A DNA stretch of 39,300 nt from Escherichia phage vB_EcoP_FFK3: the sequence record ON548433.1; one strand, written 5' to 3'. Shown here piece after piece: positions 7,486-12,500 of this stretch (positions are counted from its first letter, which is position 1; each line of letters begins with the position of its first letter). The notes under the pieces are model-generated. The model was not told the DNA's origin. It did no database searches and saw only the letters and a list, made by a program, of their open reading frames with translations. The position numbers were made by a program, and so were the translations under genes.

Positions 7486-7517
7486 GATGAGTTTTGGACC
7501 AAAAGTTTGAGACCACA

Positions 7518-7705
7518 TCTCACAGTTCAAGAACCTCAAGTCTCCCCATAGGCCCTCTTTAAGTCCAGACCAAAGGCCCTACCCAGTCTATCATAAGGCT
7601 GGACCGATGGTCGACGATAGGTCTAGGCTATGGCTGGAGGTCAGGACGATAGGTAGGGACTATTGGTCTGTCTTTGAGTCTCTATCTGTATAGTGTTATA
7701 GTATA
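7518..7705 (+). repeat. Candidate terminal repeat (single copy as in a concatemer junction or circularised assembly); boundaries approximate
   Basis: Begins TCTCACAGT..CCCCATAGG, resembling the recalled first bases of the T7 genome; ends near ..GAGTCTCTATCTGTATAGTG, resembling the end of the T7 terminal repeat; flanked by short-repeat arrays. Confidence 0.45.
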
Positions 7706-7719
7706 ACATTACGTCCTAC

Positions 7720-7815
7720 ACCTACAGTCCTACACCTACAGTCCTACAACCTACAGTCCTACAACCTACAGTCTCAACCATAAGACACCAACACCTACAG
7801 TCAGAGACCTACAGT
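7720..7815 (+). repeat. Short-repeat array (about 6 copies of ACCTACAGT) on the left-end side of the terminal repeat
   Basis: CCTACACCTACAGT x2, CCTACAACCTACAGT x2, then two more CCTACAGT copies; analogous to T7 CCTAAAG repeats. Confidence 0.65.
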
Positions 7816-7926
7816 TACTAGACACAGAGCTATAGACTTAAGGTCAAAGACATGTTAGTCAAAGACTATATCCTCTTACACCATGAGGTCGACGATAGCT
7901 TAATCAATATTATTTCAAATTACCTA

Positions 7927-7962
7927 TTGACTATAGGTCAAGACTATGGCTTAATAGCTTCC
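7927..7962 (+). promoter_or_regulatory. Candidate host sigma70 early promoter (A1-like), weak -10
   Basis: TTGACT at 7927-7932 followed 17-19 nt later by TTAATA/TAATAG. Confidence 0.3.
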
Positions 7963-8067
7963 GTCAACACGACACGGCAACAACCGGATAGTGAAGACGC
8001 CTGGTCATCCCGGTTAAGTAGACAGCCTGATAAGACATACGAACAACAGGCAAACGACAGAAAGTAG

Positions 8068-8103
8068 TTGACAAGATGTAACGATAAGATGTAAGATGTA
8101 CCA
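8068..8103 (+). promoter_or_regulatory. Candidate host sigma70 early promoter (T7 A2/A3-like)
   Basis: TTGACA (8068-8073), 17-18 nt spacer, TAAGAT (8092-8097), then GATGTACCACAT matching the recalled T7 A3 initiation region. Confidence 0.55.
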
Positions 8104-8211
8104 CATCGAAACAACGGTGATGACCAACACTGAAATGGTCTACCTGAAGTCCTCTGACTGAAGGGAATGCTCTTTAACAATCTGGATAAACTCTTAATGT
8201 GCGCCGATAGC

Positions 8212-8268
8212 GATTAACTACAGGGTCTTTGAGTCTACATCTGAAGGCCCTGACTGATAGTCACTAAC
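8212..8268 (+). other. Structured element upstream of the first early gene (R0.3-like hairpin), copy A
   Basis: GATTAACTACAGG..GGCCCTGACTGATAGTCACTAAC; stem CAGGGTC/GGCCCTG; paralogous to copy B with compensatory stem changes. Confidence 0.5.
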
Positions 8269-8275
8269 TTAAAGG

Positions 8276-8530
8276 ATGAACACTATGAAACACTTAAGCA
8301 CAATCACTAATCACAATGAAGTATTCGTGAACACTAAAGGTTATGCGTGGATTCAGCTTAAAGAGATGACAGGAGCGCGTCACCGTGTGGTAGTGCGCAA
8401 GGTCTCAAGCAAGCCGTTCAGCAACTACAGCGTAGATACTGTGCGTATAGACAACGAGACCTACCTGATAGATTCGCAGATAACCGTGAGTCCTACAGCG
8501 GGCGTCTCAGCTCCTTATTTCGCTAACTGA
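8276..8530 (+). CDS. Hypothetical early protein
   Basis: 84-aa ORF, RBS AAAGGA, first gene after the early promoter region; no recognised homolog. Confidence 0.5.
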   Translation: MNTMKHLSTITNHNEVFVNTKGYAWIQLKEMTGARHRVVVRKVSSKPFSNYSVDTVRIDNETYLIDSQITVSPTAGVSAPYFAN

Positions 8531-8534
8531 GAGT

Positions 8535-8585
8535 GATTAACTACAGGTCGTTAGACTTATAGCGGCCTGACTGATAGTCACTAAC
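8535..8585 (+). other. Structured element upstream of ocr (R0.3-like hairpin), copy B
   Basis: GATTAACTACAGG..GGCCTGACTGATAGTCACTAAC; stem CAGGTCG/CGGCCTG. Confidence 0.5.
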
Positions 8586-8617
8586 ATACACACAAACAAC
8601 TTTGAGAGGATATAACT

Positions 8618-8962
8618 ATGGAACGTAACGCTAACGCATACTATGAGCTGCTGGCTGCAACCGTTGAGCTGTTCAATGAGCGTATTCAGTACGACGAAAT
8701 AGCTGAAGGCGATGACTACTATGATGCGCTGCATGAGGTCGTAGACGGTCAGGTTCCGCACTATTACCACGATATTTTTACGGTGATGGCTGCTGATGGT
8801 ATAGACCACGAGTTCGAAGACTCTGGGCTGATGCCTGAGACCAAGGACGTAACGCGTATACTACAAGCTCGCATCTATGAGGCACTGTATAACGATGTGT
8901 ATGATAGCTCGGATGTAGTCTGGTTTGAGGCTGAAGAGAGTGACGAGGAGGACTGCGAGTGA
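8618..8962 (+). CDS. ocr: Ocr-like DNA-mimic anti-restriction protein (T7 gp0.3 homolog)
   Basis: 114 aa, highly acidic; near-identical blocks to recalled T7 Ocr ([43 protein letters not shown]). Confidence 0.85.
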
Positions 8963-9111
8963 TGGTAACTTATGGTCTCTGCCAGCACCACGTCACCAAC
9001 GCCCGGCTTATGGTCAAGACCGGGCAGTTAAACCACGATGCGACTATGCGCCACCTGAAAGCGGTCTACGAGGGCCGCAAGCGTATACACGACAGCTTAC
9101 ACACTGAGTGA
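8962..9111 (+). CDS. Hypothetical small early protein
   Basis: 49-aa ORF whose ATG overlaps the ocr stop (TGATG); preferred over the alternative-frame ORF 8925..9107 for that reason only. Confidence 0.3.
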   Translation: MVTYGLCQHHVTNARLMVKTGQLNHDATMRHLKAVYEGRKRIHDSLHTE

Positions 9112-9118
9112 TAGACGA

Positions 9119-9144
9119 GAGGTCATCGACTGATAGGTGGCCTC
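9119..9144 (+). other. Stem-loop of the AGGTCAT/GTGGCCT family
   Basis: GAGGTCAT (9119-9126), loop CGACTGATAG, GTGGCCTC (9137-9144); same stem architecture as elements at 4440, 12822, 19827. Confidence 0.45.
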
Positions 9145-9177
9145 AAAGATTACCACTTAAATTGATAGAGGTTAACT

Positions 9178-9267
9178 ATGAACATCGGTTACTGGGTATG
9201 CCTGTCTCCAGTTATCTGGATGATAGGCTATGGGTTATACGACTGTATTAAACGGAAATCACTATGA
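9178..9267 (+). CDS. Hypothetical small hydrophobic peptide
   Basis: 29-aa ORF with SD GAGG; stop overlaps next start (ATGA); hydrophobic. Confidence 0.3.
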   Translation: MNIGYWVCLSPVIWMIGYGLYDCIKRKSL

Positions 9268-9461
9268 GTCTTGCACTATTGATAGCCATAGGCTATGGAC
9301 TTATCACCTACGTGCTGGTGAGAGACATCGACAAAGCGCGTAAAGTCTACAAATTCAACTATGTACGTCTGGGCCGCTGGACTGTACGTCAACCTAACGG
9401 ACGATTCATGCGCAACTTAGCGAACGTCTGGGACATAGCAACTATTGGGAGCAAACTGTAA
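9264..9461 (+). CDS. Hypothetical small membrane protein (early)
   Basis: 65 aa; N-terminal TM segment (LALLIAIGYGLITYVLV); translationally coupled to neighbours. Confidence 0.5.
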   Translation: MSLALLIAIGYGLITYVLVRDIDKARKVYKFNYVRLGRWTVRQPNGRFMRNLANVWDIATIGSKL

Positions 9462-9721
9462 TGAAAACCGTATACATTAACAAACCATCTATCCGTAGCC
9501 GTGTAGAGCAAATACAGCGTGACGTGTTCTTACATCGCCGCATGGAGGCAGAGGGCCATAAGTCCGAACTGATGTGTCTGGCGTATGGTGGACGACCGAT
9601 CACTGACGATGGTAGACTTTTAGTCTCAGGCTGGAAGGCGATAGACCAACGGTCAACCATCAAGCACACGACTCATGGTGACTTCAGCCATCTCCACGCT
9701 AACCCACTGATATGCAAGTAA
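9461..9721 (+). CDS. Hypothetical early protein
   Basis: 86-aa ORF; start overlaps previous stop (TAATG). Confidence 0.5.
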   Translation: MKTVYINKPSIRSRVEQIQRDVFLHRRMEAEGHKSELMCLAYGGRPITDDGRLLVSGWKAIDQRSTIKHTTHGDFSHLHANPLICK

Positions 9722-9726
9722 TTATG

Positions 9727-9749
9727 ACTTAACTATCACTATAGGACTC
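9727..9749 (+). promoter_or_regulatory. Phage RNAP promoter immediately upstream of the RNAP gene
   Basis: ACTTAACTATCACTATAGGACTC; exact match to the window consensus; +1 G at 9744, 75 nt before the gene 1 start. Confidence 0.75.
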
Positions 9750-9818
9750 AAGGTCTAAGACTCCAAGTGAAAGACCAAAGAGACTTTAAGTGAAAGACTA
9801 ATAACAAGGACTTTAAGT

Positions 9819-12500
9819 ATGAGCGTCATCTCTATTGATAAACACGACTTCTCTGATGTGTCGAACGCCATTGAGCCGTTTAACCTGCTGGCCGACCACT
9901 ACGGGCAAGATCTTGCAGTCAAACAGCTTCAGCTTGAGCATGAGGCATACACTGAAGGCGAGCGACGTTTCATCAAGAACCTTGAGCGACAGACTGAGCG
10001 CGGGGAACTGGCAGACAATCAGGTCGCCAAGCCTTTGATGCAGACTCTGGTCCCTAAGATTGCGCAAGCCGTCAAGGAGTGGCACGAAGGTCCAGACGGG
10101 AAGCTGTCAACCTCTCGTCCTAGCGTAGCGTTCACCATGTTGAGCACTGAAGAGAAGGCCGTCAAGGACCGCTCACTGCGTATCTCTTGCGAGTCTGCTG
10201 CGGTCATCATACTGAAGGTCATACTCTCCAAGCTGGTCAAGCCTGAGGGGATACCAATTACACCGATGGCTTCCGCGATAGGTCGCACACTTGAGGATGA
10301 AATCCGCTTCGGTCGCATCCGTGACAAGGAGAAGGAGCACTTCAAGAAGGCGATAGCTGATAACCTGAATAAGCGGGCCGGGGCGTCCTACAAGAAAGCC
10401 TACATGCAAGCGGTCGAGGCATCCATGCTGGAGCAAGGACAACTTGAAGATGCGTGGGGAACTTGGAGTCCTACAGAGGCTGTCCACGTTGGCATCAAGA
10501 TGCTTGAGATTGTCATCCAGTCAACACAACTGGTAGAGCTTAAGCGGTACGGTGCTGGCAATGCAGCGGCTGACGTAGAGATGGTCCACCTGTCAGACTT
10601 CTGGGTCAAGAAGATGGCACAACGAGGATTCAGCCTTGCGGGTATCGCTCCAGTCTACCAGCCTTGCGTCGTTCCACCTAAGCCGTGGACTGGTGTCGTA
10701 GGTGGTGGGTACTGGGCCAAAGGTCGCAGACCGTTACCATTGATTCGCTTAGGGTCTAAGTCTGCGGTGGCACGTTATGAAGACGTGTACATGCCTGAAG
10801 TCTATGACGCTGTGAATATCATCCAGAATACACCTTGGAAAGTGAACAAGAAGGTATTAGACGTGGTGAACATGGTCGAGAAGCTGAACAACACGCCTAT
10901 TGATGACATCCCTCAGATGGAACCGCTGAAGCCTGAAGACTATGCGGGTGAGACTGAGGAGGAACTCAAGGCATGGAAGAAGGCTGCTGCTGGTATCTAT
11001 CGCCGCGAGAAGGCCAGACAGTCACGCAGATTATCACTGAGCTTTATCGTTAACCAAGCGAACAAGTTCTCTCAGTTCAAGGCCATCTGGTTCCCGTACA
11101 ACATGGACTGGCGAGGTCGTGTCTACGCTGTGCCGATGTTCAACCCTCAGGGTAACGACATGCAGAAGGGTCTCCTGACTCTGGCAGTCGGTAAGCCTAT
11201 TGGTGCTGATGGTTTCAAATGGCTGAAGGTCCACGGTGCAAACTGTGCTGGTGTCGATAAAGTCACCTTCGAGGAGCGTATCAAGTGGGTGGAAGACAAC
11301 CACGAAAACATCATGGCTGCTGCTAAGGCACCGATGGATAGTATTGAGTGGTGGGGCAAGTTAGACTCTCCGTTCTGTTTCCTCGCGTTCTGCTTCGAGT
11401 ATGCTGGCGTAATGCACCACGGCCTGTCTTACTCCTGCTCGCTGCCGATAGCGTTCGATGGGTCCTGCTCTGGTATTCAGCACTTCAGTGCGATGCTTCG
11501 TGACCACATCGGTGGACATGCAGTAAACCTGACGCCATCCGGTAAGGTACAAGACATCTACCGCATTGTGTCTGACCGCATTGAGGAGGAGCTTAAAGTC
11601 CTGCTGATTAACGGTACTGACAACGAGATGGTCACTCACGAGGATAAGAAAACTGGTGAGATTACCGAACGTATCAAGCTGGGGACACGAGAGCTGGCCC
11701 GGCAGTGGCTGACTTACGGCATGTCACGCAAGGTCACTAAGCGTTCAGTAATGACTCTGGCCTATGGGTCGAAAGAGTACGGCTTCGCAGACCAAGTTTA
11801 TGAGGACATCGTGATGCCAGCGATTGACTCAGGGTCTGGCGCTATGTTCACCGAACCAAGCCAAGCGTCCCGCTTCATGGCTAAGATGATTTGGGAAGCT
11901 GTGAGCGTGACCGTAGTTGCTGCGGTTGACGCGATGAAGTGGCTTCAGGGTGCTGCCAAGCTGCTGGCTGCTGAAGTGAAGGACAAGAAGACTGGAGAAA
12001 TCCTGAAGCCTTGCCTTCCGGTACACTGGGTAACACCTGATGGTTTCCCGGTCTGGCAGGAATACCGCAAGAAGGATACCACTCGTCTGAATCTGATGTT
12101 CTTAGGGTCATTCAACCTTCAACCTACGGTCAACAAAGGCACGAAGAAAGAGCTTGACAAGCACAAGCAGGAGTCAGGCATTAGCCCGAACTTCGTCCAC
12201 TCACAAGATGGTAGCCACCTCCGCAAGACTGTAGTCCACACGCATCGCAAGTATGGCGTGATGTCATTCGCAGTGATTCATGATAGCTTCGGGACCATCC
12301 CGGCTGACGCTGAACATCTGTTCCGTGGTGTCCGTGAGACGATGGTCGAGACCTACCGCGACAACGATGTGCTGCTTGACTTCTACGAGCAGTTTGAATA
12401 CCAGCTTCATGAGAGCCAGCGCGACAAGTTGCCTGAGCTTCCGAAGAAAGGTAAACTGAATATCGAAGACATCTTGTCTTCAGACTTTGCATTCGCTTAA
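9819..12500 (+). CDS. gp1: Single-subunit DNA-directed RNA polymerase (T7 gp1 homolog)
   Basis: 893 aa; conserved T7 RNAP blocks incl. catalytic DGSCSGIQH and C-terminal FAFA; RBS AAGGA. Confidence 0.95.
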   Translation: MSVISIDKHDFSDVSNAIEPFNLLADHYGQDLAVKQLQLEHEAYTEGERRFIKNLERQTERGELADNQVAKPLMQTLVPKIAQAVKEWHEGPDGKLSTSRPSVAFTMLSTEEKAVKDRSLRISCESAAVIILKVILSKLVKPEGIPITPMASAIGRTLEDEIRFGRIRDKEKEHFKKAIADNLNKRAGASYKKAYMQAVEASMLEQGQLEDAWGTWSPTEAVHVGIKMLEIVIQSTQLVELKRYGAGNAAADVEMVHLSDFWVKKMAQRGFSLAGIAPVYQPCVVPPKPWTGVVGGGYWAKGRRPLPLIRLGSKSAVARYEDVYMPEVYDAVNIIQNTPWKVNKKVLDVVNMVEKLNNTPIDDIPQMEPLKPEDYAGETEEELKAWKKAAAGIYRREKARQSRRLSLSFIVNQANKFSQFKAIWFPYNMDWRGRVYAVPMFNPQGNDMQKGLLTLAVGKPIGADGFKWLKVHGANCAGVDKVTFEERIKWVEDNHENIMAAAKAPMDSIEWWGKLDSPFCFLAFCFEYAGVMHHGLSYSCSLPIAFDGSCSGIQHFSAMLRDHIGGHAVNLTPSGKVQDIYRIVSDRIEEELKVLLINGTDNEMVTHEDKKTGEITERIKLGTRELARQWLTYGMSRKVTKRSVMTLAYGSKEYGFADQVYEDIVMPAIDSGSGAMFTEPSQASRFMAKMIWEAVSVTVVAAVDAMKWLQGAAKLLAAEVKDKKTGEILKPCLPVHWVTPDGFPVWQEYRKKDTTRLNLMFLGSFNLQPTVNKGTKKELDKHKQESGISPNFVHSQDGSHLRKTVVHTHRKYGVMSFAVIHDSFGTIPADAEHLFRGVRETMVETYRDNDVLLDFYEQFEYQLHESQRDKLPELPKKGKLNIEDILSSDFAFA

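Follow-up and report, generated by a model that had tools for sequence, protein, structure and literature searches.

Between positions 8,276 and 9,721 of Escherichia phage vB_EcoP_FFK3 (record ON548433.1; the window is the whole 39,300 nt stretch that was analysed), six small open reading frames lie ahead of a phage RNA polymerase gene, and the question raised by this locus is whether they constitute a reservoir of new functions or a familiar set of early genes. All six frames of the original prediction are recovered in the ORF listing at the coordinates it gave, and its description of the block as early genes of a T7-like phage that encode Ocr but no kinase is borne out by homology and gene order. 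We consider it very probable (about 0.85) that a K1F-like Kayfunavirus has its class I (early) transcription unit in this region. The window is of the same length as Escherichia phage vB_EcoP_F, a K1F-like member of the genus Kayfunavirus, and shares its coordinates; the two are 98.2% identical over a 1,721 nt query and 98.1% identical across 4,721 nt with no indels. The early genes of K1F, vB_EcoP_F and EcoDS1 are direct orthologues, with 77-100% protein identity and in the same order, and annotated counterparts of gp0.2, 0.3, 0.35, 0.37 (0.6) and 0.38 are present in one or another of these genomes; the 29-aa ORF is the sole gene without one. The end of the EcoDS1 terminal repeat maps at 7654-7692 of the window, and the cassette lies approximately 0.6-2 kb from the physical left genome end, so that it would be one of the earliest parts of the genome to enter the cell.

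The cassette is of a known kind, an ordinary K1F-type early block organised like the textbook early region of T7 and T3 (Table 1). The class I genes of T7 are 0.3, 0.4, 0.5, 0.6 and 0.7, followed by gene 1, with RNase III sites R0.3, R0.5 and R1. The order here is the same, with promoters near the left genome end, an R0.3-type hairpin, ocr, a gp0.4-type gene coupled to it and an R0.5-type hairpin, followed by a small hydrophobic protein, further small proteins and the RNA polymerase gene. It differs from T7 in the absence of the gp0.7 kinase and of homologues of gp0.5 and gp0.6A, and in the presence of gp0.2, with its own hairpin 5' of ocr, and of gp0.38, which has no T7 counterpart. T3 has RNase III hairpins of almost identical design and a gp0.6 that, like gp0.37 of the window, is 65 aa long, has the same N-terminal anchor and falls in the same PHROG, but it encodes a SAM lyase as gene 0.3 where the window has Ocr, lacks a gp0.4 homologue, and carries gp0.65 and the gp0.7 kinase. 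There are also differences among the closer relatives: K1F Ocr is 169 aa, compared with 114 aa in the window, with a C-terminal insert of about 55 aa; K1F has a 55-aa gp0.36 where the window has the 29-aa gene; and in EcoDS1 gp0.2 is missing and gp0.38, extended at its N-terminus, reaches 132 aa.

Table 1. Features of the early region of the window and its boundaries.
Feature	Coordinates	Strand	Description
Host (sigma-70) early promoter	7927..7963	+	94.6% identity over 37 nt to the first EcoDS1 'host RNAP promoter', 469-505
Strong sigma-70 promoter-like site TTGACA-18-TAAGAT	8068..8097	+	10/12 consensus matches only
RNase III-type hairpin Ra	8208..8266	+	Upstream of gp0.2; fold like T3 sites
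gp0.2	8285..8530	+	81 aa, basic, beta-rich; earlier '84-aa' ORF from 8276
RNase III-type hairpin Rb	8528..8586	+	R0.3 position, upstream of ocr
ocr (gene 0.3)	8618..8962	+	114 aa; Pfam, PHROG and PDB matches
gp0.35	8962..9111	+	49 aa; homologue, by sequence, of the T7 gp0.4 FtsZ inhibitor
RNase III-type hairpin Rc	9105..9159	+	R0.5 position; divides ocr-gp0.35 from downstream unit
29-aa microprotein	9178..9267	+	Hydrophobic, KRKS tail, own Shine-Dalgarno GAGGT
gp0.37 ('0.6' in K1F, EcoDS1)	9264..9461	+	65 aa; T3 gp0.6 family
gp0.38	9461..9721	+	86 aa, basic, helical; C-terminal half very conserved
Phage RNA-polymerase promoter	9727..9749	+	Just 5' of gene 1; 100% identity to EcoDS1 'phi' promoter
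Gene 1, T7-type single-subunit RNA polymerase	9819..12500	+	893 aa; downstream cassette boundary

From T7 and T3 biology, by homology and position, we infer the following mode of expression. The host RNA polymerase would transcribe the cassette from sigma-70 promoters at approximately 7927-8097, and the long transcript would be cut at the three RNase III-type hairpins to give three mRNAs, the first with gp0.2, the second with ocr and gp0.35, and the third with the 29-aa gene, gp0.37 and gp0.38 and possibly running into gene 1. Overlapping stop and start codons would couple translation within each mRNA. In position the block corresponds to T7/T3 genes 0.3-0.7, minus the kinase. A scan for sigma-70 promoters found four sites, compared with a mean of 4.1 in shuffled sequence, and therefore no enrichment; by position, the promoter-like site at 8068-8097 would be the last early promoter ahead of the cassette. 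We note that the promoter at 7927-7963 sits within a doubtful ORF, 'gp0.1'. The core of the phage promoter 5' of gene 1 recurs at least ten times in the window, and gene 1 is annotated as RNA polymerase in all relatives.

Ra, Rb and Rc each consist of a lower stem, an asymmetric internal loop and a G+C-rich upper stem, which is the design of the annotated R0.3, R0.5 and R1 sites of T3. Rb has a folding energy of -23.9 kcal/mol (z = -4.67, with none of 200 shuffled sequences folding equally well) and the same architecture as T3 R0.3, and Rc (z = -3.0) matches T3 R0.5 in its architecture and in its upper stem, AGGTC...GGCCT. The fold of Ra alone is indistinguishable from that of shuffled sequence (z -1.69), and Ra is a direct duplicate of Rb (repeat families D4 and D8). 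All three are predicted to be RNase III processing sites of the T7 group, located at equivalent positions between early genes. An Rfam search of 7500-9900 gave no match, Rfam having no model for such sites, and a folding scan found no clear R1-type hairpin before gene 1.

The four small ORFs that follow ocr had been described as coupled, and they are so only in two groups. The ocr termination codon TGA (8960-8962) overlaps the gp0.35 ATG at 8962 (TGATG at 8960-8964), the 29-aa ORF terminates across the ATG at 9264 (ATGA), and gp0.37 terminates across the ATG at 9461 in a TAATG junction that is kept in 16 of 21 loci. A single chain does not exist, however, as 66 nt separate the end of the 49-aa gene (9111) from the start of the 29-aa gene (9178), and in this gap a further Shine-Dalgarno sequence accompanies an RNase III-type hairpin. 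Gene content in the region is mosaic over 20 distinct related loci, and the region is a hot spot for gene exchange. The reading frames themselves are conserved: codon-level comparison across 11-23 related loci shows low dN/dS values and substitutions biased toward the third codon position, and purifying selection is seen in all six ORFs.

Two of the small genes belong, by sequence comparison, to known T7/T3 early families (gp0.4 and T3 gp0.6), and they accompany the known Ocr. The identity of Ocr is secured by matches to Pfam PF08684 (3e-33; 114.7 bits against a cut-off of 25), to phrog_2568 (9.3e-54) and to PDB entries 1S7Z and 2Y7C (~3.6e-29; 3.7e-29 for 1S7Z), and it was the only one of the six proteins to match in scans of Pfam, NCBIfam and PADLOC. 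It is 54% identical to T7 Ocr, strongly acidic (pI 4.1, with 32 Asp+Glu and 5 Lys+Arg) and has a dN/dS of 0.17 among related loci. Ocr is a DNA mimic that inhibits type I restriction-modification and BREX, and the Ocr of the cassette would be expected, by homology, to block both systems in the same way.

The 49-aa gp0.35 had been listed among the candidates for new functions, but its sequence makes it a homologue of T7 gp0.4. The pairwise comparison gives 39% identity over 41 aa (E 1.9e-4) and the PHROG profile matches are reciprocal, gp0.35 matching phrog_7202 at 2.4e-5 and T7 gp0.4 matching phrog_5058 at 9e-5. Przondovirus Kp_7 also matches gp0.35 (39% identity, E 7.6e-6), and the counterpart in phage CR44b is annotated '0.4'. 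The two proteins are of similar length (51 aa in T7 and 49 aa here) and both are coupled to ocr, the T7 genes lying at 925-1278 (ocr) and 1278-1433 (0.4), although identity is only 38-39% and each belongs to a separate PHROG (5058 for gp0.35 and 7202 for T7). A search of the gp0.35 profile against PDB sequences gave nothing meaningful. Residues V6, Y8, G9, M32, L35, K36 and Y39 are invariant in the alignment of gp0.4 and gp0.35 proteins, and dN/dS among related loci is 0.26.

In T7 gp0.4 the residues required for inhibition of FtsZ are V15, V22, W28, M32, L35 and Y39 (PMC13423816), and gp0.35 keeps five of the six (V15, V22, M32, L35 and Y39 in T7 numbering). The exception is W28, which is replaced by His beside a one-residue insertion in all seven of the non-T7 homologues aligned (six from Kayfunavirus and one from Przondovirus). 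Because substitution of W28 abolishes FtsZ binding by T7 gp0.4, this replacement and the accompanying insertion make FtsZ binding by gp0.35 likely but not certain. By extrapolation from T7, gp0.35 would bind FtsZ and stop cell division; infection by K1F has been reported to mislocalise FtsZ and to cause filamentation (PMC9372555), and T7 gp0.4 is sensed by the CapRel system (PMC13423816).

gp0.37 is related to T3 gp0.6, at 38% identity, and to a Przondovirus counterpart, at 43%. Both it and T3 gp0.6 match phrog_2385 (3.9e-31 and 9.1e-30, respectively), and the two share a basic character (pI 10.7 and 10.5) and an N-terminal hydrophobic segment, with Kyte-Doolittle maxima of 2.38 at residues 3-19 (17-residue window) and 2.33 at residues 2-18. 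The expectation that two of the small proteins are hydrophobic or membrane-anchored is confirmed for gp0.37, which has a clear transmembrane (TM) segment, and holds for the 29-aa protein in that it is hydrophobic and aromatic, although borderline for a TM helix (Kyte-Doolittle 1.31). gp0.37 would be anchored in the inner membrane, its basic tail probably facing the cytoplasm; dN/dS among related loci is 0.30. T7 gp0.6A/B is an inhibitor of MreB, and we considered and rejected such an assignment for gp0.37: the similarity is in name only, no ORF in the window matches gp0.6A by BLAST or matches phrog_8393, to which T7 gp0.6A belongs, and what K1F and EcoDS1 call '0.6' is the T3-type gene.

The 29-aa gene is uncalled in vB_EcoP_F, has no counterpart in K1F and is annotated in only some related records. 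With so few codons, a hairpin close upstream and no match in PHROG or Pfam, this ORF, and perhaps other small ORFs, might be taken for non-genes whose conservation comes from a signal in the RNA or DNA (an RNase III site, a promoter or a ribosome-binding region, for instance). We regard this as very improbable. By tblastn the ORF is present in 93 phage records, and of 15 loci compared, 14 have it at exactly 29 codons, behind a Shine-Dalgarno sequence and beginning with ATG; in all 14 the termination codon overlaps or abuts the start of the next gene; differences fall 62/49/167 over the three codon positions and dN/dS is 0.13. Hairpin Rc ends at 9159, ahead of the ORF start, and 7 of the 15 loci have stop codons in the overlapping alternative frame, a 47-aa GTG ORF at 9108-9251 that was considered as a gene and rejected. 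The notion that the ORF is a duplicate of the gp0.37 N-terminus was also rejected, the match extending to just 11 nt (IGYGL). The 29-aa gene fills a slot of variable content behind the R0.5-type hairpin, taken in T7 by gp0.5. It is missing from about a third of related loci; K1F and some relatives have the different small hydrophobic protein gp0.36 in the slot, and some loci have both.

gp0.38 matches phrog_7066 (3.3e-41) and 223 phage records, and a profile search of 1.84 billion representative proteins returned only 13 clusters; one match to a 1594-aa protein is taken as spurious because it involves only the charged N-terminal helix. It appears from these searches to be largely restricted to Kayfunavirus-type phages. 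Residue H69 never varies and H77, H79 and C85 hardly do, with a dN/dS of 0.31 among related loci and a pI of 9.6. The AlphaFold2 model is of low confidence (pLDDT 62.6) and gives only generic matches in fold searches, and a search of the profile against PDB sequences found nothing meaningful. Of 20 distinct loci, 19 have both gp0.37 and gp0.38 if the truncated gp0.37 of phage ZG49 (locus L016) is included. gp0.38 is a genus-level, near-universal early protein. A relationship to T3 gp0.65 was considered and rejected, no similarity being found.

The absence of a gene the size of gp0.7 is upheld, as there is no ORF longer than 114 aa between 8276 and 9819, and tblastn of T7 and T3 gp0.7 against the whole window gave no match at E <= 1. 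Some Kayfunavirus relatives have a 244-aa kinase-only gene that lacks the shut-off domain and keep gp0.38 downstream of it; among the 20 distinct loci examined, ocr and gp0.35 are never found together with this kinase gene. These relatives raise the possibility that gp0.38, as a separate protein, takes over the function of the C-terminal shut-off (DNA-binding) domain of T7 gp0.7, which is missing here, and the protein is basic and helical and is encoded directly before gene 1, the position of gp0.7 in T7 and T3. We consider this unlikely, as the gp0.38 profile scores just 2.9 bits against T7 gp0.7, with no detectable sequence similarity, and gp0.38 does not match phrog_2828, of which positions 238-366 correspond to the shut-off domain. 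Derivation of gp0.38 by homology from a detached shut-off domain was rejected for the same lack of similarity.

A different proposal for the third mRNA is that the 29-aa protein, gp0.37 and gp0.38 form a coupled module working in host takeover or exclusion at the inner membrane, for example by blocking superinfection or DNA entry or by modulating a membrane enzyme, with the small hydrophobic proteins anchoring or recruiting gp0.38. The TM helix of gp0.37, the hydrophobic character and KRKS tail of the 29-aa protein, the conserved stop-start overlaps and the co-occurrence of gp0.37 and gp0.38 are consistent with this, and T7 gp0.5 and K1F gp0.36 are other small hydrophobic proteins encoded between the R0.5-type hairpin and the next gene. 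In phage ZG49 the 29-aa protein and the gp0.37 C-terminus are naturally fused in frame, which suggests that the two anchors are interchangeable. However, the coupling may merely reflect the compact packing of phage genes, the 29-aa gene is dispensed with in the loci noted above, four loci have an additional gene of approximately 420 nt between gp0.37 and gp0.38, and T3 has a gp0.6 homologue without gp0.38. We therefore regard such a module as rather doubtful.

For gp0.2, the 84-aa ORF from 8276 exists, but the start is most likely the ATG at 8285, giving a predicted product of 81 aa; a Shine-Dalgarno sequence, AAGGA, directly abuts the ATG at 8276 but is 8 nt upstream of that at 8285, homologues in four further phage genera have their first residue aligned with 8285, and both K1F and vB_EcoP_F annotate an 81-aa protein. 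Within Kayfunavirus the gene is patchy, being found in 3 of 20 distinct loci, yet relatives at 35-75% identity are present in Kayfunavirus, Przondovirus and Ermolevavirus (T7-like), Gamaleyavirus (N4-like) and Phapecoctavirus (large myoviruses), in phages only and always among small early or accessory genes. Comparisons with the homologues of other genera give pS values of 0.74-0.89, which are saturated, and pN values of 0.19-0.44. A profile search of 5.8 billion proteins returned 69 clusters, all of small, stand-alone, domain-free phage proteins. A search against PDB sequences found nothing meaningful, the AlphaFold2 model is of low confidence (pLDDT 65.6) with only generic matches in fold searches, and a BFVD search turned up small podophage proteins, themselves uncharacterised, that resemble it only weakly. 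The gene is flanked by the duplicated hairpins Ra and Rb, and a plausible scenario is that gp0.2 is a horizontally mobile accessory gene, apparently inserted along with the duplicated RNase III site. We note that, with a duplicate site on either side, gp0.2 has the look of an inserted, self-contained expression cassette.

The suggestion that the small proteins of the cassette are uncharacterised and candidates for new functions thus holds only in part, because some prove to be homologues of known T7 early proteins. It stands for gp0.2, the 29-aa protein and gp0.38, and in practice for gp0.37, although the gp0.37 family is known; it does not stand for gp0.35. Homology searches recovered the relations to Ocr, gp0.4 and T3 gp0.6, and gave no function for gp0.2, the 29-aa protein or gp0.38. 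Neither these three nor gp0.37 could be assigned a function from Pfam, PHROGs, NCBIfam, PADLOC, the PDB, fold searches or the searchable literature, in which we found no functional study of K1F gp0.2, 0.36, 0.37 or 0.38 or of T3 gp0.6. The idea that they are host-takeover or anti-defence factors consequently remains plausible but unproven.

In its stronger form, that gp0.2, the 29-aa protein, gp0.37 and gp0.38 include at least one new anti-defence factor directed against a specific bacterial immune system, this idea is possible but the balance is against it; it adds to the explanation of the region as an early transcription unit and does not exclude it. The uncharacterised genes adjoin ocr, on DNA that enters the cell first, and lie in a hot spot for gene exchange, and gp0.2, patchy in the genus but common to several unrelated phage groups, has the distribution expected of mobile counter-defence genes. 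The T7 kinase is broadly anti-defence (PMC13645617), and it is the related kinase of some relatives that is never found alongside ocr and gp0.35. Location beside ocr is nevertheless mere guilt by association, and the four proteins show no similarity to known anti-defence proteins or domains in Pfam, PHROGs, NCBIfam or PADLOC. Six short peptide strings from these proteins gave no match in a text search of the supplementary files available from two phage accessory-gene screens. The near-universality of gp0.37 and gp0.38 in the genus argues for a core host-takeover role more than for that of an accessory in an arms race.

The early transcription unit of a K1F-like Kayfunavirus remains our preferred interpretation of the region, and it leaves three or four conserved early proteins without assigned function, among which gp0.2 stands out in that it moves between unrelated phage families. 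We suggest tentatively that gp0.2 may be a new mobile counter-defence or host-takeover protein and, separately, that the 29-aa protein, gp0.37 and gp0.38 may provide an unrecognised membrane-associated early function common to Kayfunavirus. The practical value lies in a short and well-defined list of candidates for experiments. Therapy-oriented work on K1-capsulated E. coli makes use of K1F-like phages, and the effects of their early proteins on the host are thus of some applied interest. A putative FtsZ inhibitor of the gp0.4 type that has diverged at a key tryptophan bears on the evolution of FtsZ inhibitors and on possible escape from CapRel-type sensing.

The segment at 8276-9721 is an early operon that is already annotated and is organised like the gene 0.3-0.7 region of T7 and T3. 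All six open reading frames of the original prediction are found at the positions described, and its interpretation of them as candidates for new functions is half right. What lies here is a K1F-like phage's standard early operon, already known as a feature; three of its proteins belong to known families, and the other three match no functional family. By sequence comparison, two of the former are Ocr and a predicted gp0.4-type FtsZ inhibitor, and the third is a predicted membrane protein of the T3 gp0.6 family.

With a 1.7-kb query (8100-9820), Escherichia phage vB_EcoP_F (KY295894, Kayfunavirus, 39,300 bp) is 98.2% identical at the same coordinates and phage K1F is ~96% identical. The window and KY295894 differ over 4.7 kb by 90 substitutions and no indels, and since 33 of the 35 differences in the RNA polymerase gene are at third codon positions, the window behaves as a natural close relative. 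The position of the EcoDS1 terminal-repeat end indicates that the record is circularly permuted and that the cassette lies ~0.6-2 kb from the true left genome end, in the part of the genome that enters the host first. Short direct repeats (CCTACAGT-type, with 14-nt spacing) form an array next to this repeat end, just inside the left genome end.

Features of the early region, in window coordinates
Feature	Coordinates	Remark
EcoDS1 terminal-repeat end	7654-7692	mapped from EcoDS1
Direct-repeat array	7701-7815	
'gp0.1' ORF	7852-8067	71 aa
First EcoDS1-annotated host-polymerase promoter	7927-7963	mapped from EcoDS1
TTGACA-18-TAAGAT site	8068-8097	
Hairpin Ra	8208-8266	
Hairpin Rb	8528-8586	R0.3 position
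ocr	8618-8962	
ocr/gp0.35 junction	8960-8964	TGA overlaps ATG
Hairpin Rc	9105-9159	R0.5 position
GTG ORF	9108-9251	47 aa; annotated in EcoDS1
29-aa ORF/gp0.37 junction	9264-9267	ATGA
gp0.37/gp0.38 junction	9459-9463	TAATG
Phage promoter	9727-9749	identical to EcoDS1 'phi' promoter; just upstream of gene 1
Gene 1	9819-12500	

The mapped promoters and the hairpin positions show a layout that mirrors T7 and T3: promoters, R0.3, genes 0.3-0.4, R0.5, small proteins and gene 1. In the folds of hairpins Ra, Rb and Rc an asymmetric internal loop separates a lower stem from a G+C-rich upper stem, the same design as in the annotated T3 RNase III sites R0.3, R0.5 and R1. A stretch of ~60 nt is directly duplicated, with Ra on one side of gp0.2 and Rb on the other, and a Klebsiella Przondovirus gp0.2 homologue also has a hairpin of this kind after it, which together suggest that gp0.2 was gained as a gene-plus-processing-site cassette.

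The first gene had been described as 84 aa from 8276; the gene stands, but its start is most likely ATG 8285, giving a product of 81 aa. This is favoured because the Shine-Dalgarno sequence AAGGA is 8 nt upstream of ATG 8285 but touches ATG 8276, the homologues in four other genera begin at a methionine aligned with 8285, and the gene is annotated as 81 aa in K1F and vB_EcoP_F. Of the coupling proposed among four small ORFs, direct reading of the sequence bears out the overlaps at the ocr/49-aa, 29-aa/65-aa and 65-aa/86-aa junctions but not that between the 49-aa and 29-aa genes, which are separated by a 66-nt spacer that holds a hairpin and gives the 29-aa gene its own Shine-Dalgarno sequence.

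For comparison with the window and the K1F and vB_EcoP_F records, 22 related early regions were taken from IMG/VR with a gp0.38 profile; two loci duplicate another, leaving 20 distinct loci as the denominator. Substitutions in the compared cassette ORFs are biased towards third codon positions, and dN/dS is well below 1 (Ocr, 0.17; gp0.35, 49 aa, 0.26; 29-aa ORF, 0.13; gp0.37, 65 aa, 0.30; gp0.38, 86 aa, 0.31; RNA polymerase as control, 0.04). Between gp0.2 and its homologues of other genera, synonymous sites are saturated (pS 0.74-0.89; pN 0.19-0.44). In 14 of 15 loci the 29-aa ORF is exactly 29 codons long, starts with ATG and is preceded by a GGAG/GAGG Shine-Dalgarno sequence; in each of these 14 its stop codon overlaps the following gene's ATG or adjoins it. 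By tblastn it is present in 93 GenBank phage records. The 47-aa GTG ORF, which shares sequence with hairpin Rc and runs in a different frame through part of the 29-aa gene, is likely spurious, with in-frame stops in 7 of 15 loci. Upstream, the 'gp0.1' ORF, labelled 'alpha,alpha-trehalase' in KY295894, contains the mapped host promoter, is without codon-position bias (115/107/109) and gives a dN/dS value of 0.59. This ORF is unlikely to be a gene, and its trehalase label seems to be an error of annotation.

Ocr matches Pfam PF08684 at 3e-33 and PDB 1S7Z at 3.7e-29, is 54% identical to T7 Ocr and has a pI of 4.1. K1F Ocr (169 aa; 1114-1623 in the K1F early locus) carries an extra C-terminal segment of ~55 aa (KAEYWVVDTRTGEIIEAAV...) that loci L007, L010 and L026 share and the window Ocr lacks; the long and short forms both end in EEDCE. 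The assignment of gp0.35 draws on 39% identity to T7 gp0.4 and on reciprocal profile matches, of gp0.35 to the PHROG of T7 gp0.4 (7202) at 2.4e-5 and of T7 gp0.4 to that of gp0.35 (5058) at 9e-5. Alanine substitution of six T7 gp0.4 residues abolishes toxicity (PMC13423816); in a MAFFT alignment gp0.35 keeps five of these (V15, V22, M32, L35 and Y39), and W28 is replaced by His. Upon K1F infection FtsZ is reported to be mislocalised and cells to become filamentous (PMC9372555), and the annotation of phage CR44b already names this gene '0.4'.

The gp0.37 gene bears the label '0.6' in K1F (DQ111067) and EcoDS1, and its product is 38% identical to T3 gp0.6, shares PHROG 2385 with it, and combines a clear transmembrane segment at the N-terminus with a basic tail. 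It is unrelated to the MreB inhibitor T7 gp0.6A (phrog_8393). Genes gp0.37 and gp0.38 are almost universal in the sampled genus, and 16 of 21 loci keep their TAATG junction. Exactly at this point, apparently a hot spot for insertion, an extra insert of ~420 nt is found in four loci (L018, L019, L023 and L025). Phage ZG49 (L016 2600-2743) has a natural in-frame fusion of residues 1-28 of the 29-aa protein and the 19 C-terminal residues of gp0.37, a 47-aa protein from which the gp0.37 transmembrane segment is deleted.

The reported lack of a gp0.7-sized gene holds: the longest ORF ahead of gene 1 is 114 aa, and tblastn finds no T7 or T3 gp0.7 kinase homologue in the whole window. Seven related loci encode a gp0.7 homologue of 244 aa, which is kinase-only and lacks the C-terminal shut-off/DNA-binding domain. 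These are Kayfunavirus-type contigs (L019, L021-L025 and L027; for example L022 1850-2584), and the homologue belongs to phrog_15752 and has a DPV motif. Both ocr and gp0.35 are missing from all seven, and the kinase is missing from all ten distinct loci with ocr; the ocr-gp0.35 and kinase modules may be mutually exclusive.

The other three early proteins (gp0.2, the 29-aa microprotein and gp0.38) are genuine and conserved, and match no functional family in Pfam, PHROG, NCBIfam or PADLOC. Two accessory-gene screens have none of six short peptide strings from these cassette proteins in their supplements, and the literature searched yields no functional study of these proteins. gp0.38 occurs in 223 phage records, yet a search of 1.84 billion proteins gives only 13 representative clusters; conservation is high in its C-terminal half (H69 invariant; H77, H79 and C85 nearly so). 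Length variants of 83, 108 and 130-139 aa, with N-terminal extensions, are seen. It is similar to neither the gp0.7 shut-off domain nor T3 gp0.65, and its AlphaFold2 model is helical and of low confidence (pLDDT 62.6). That of gp0.2 has five beta-strands, also at low confidence (pLDDT 65.6), and BFVD gives just a weak likeness to other uncharacterised small proteins of T7-like phages.

Within Kayfunavirus gp0.2 is sporadic (3/20 distinct loci), and it is also found in Przondovirus, there as the first early gene, in Ermolevavirus, in the early region of N4-like Gamaleyavirus and in one 154-kb Phapecoctavirus. A profile search of 5.8 billion proteins yields only 69 clusters, all of 43-100 aa and with no Pfam domains or functional name, and the longest contigs bearing their members are of phage-genome sizes. 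In the N4-like Shigella phage pSb-1 (L033 2495-2719) an unannotated homologue is interrupted: its ORF stops after 34 codons, which marks either a pseudogene or an error of sequencing. The position and distribution of gp0.2, the 29-aa protein and gp0.38, above all the occurrence of gp0.2 in phages that are unrelated to one another, mark the three as reasonable but unproven candidates for a role in host takeover or counter-defence.
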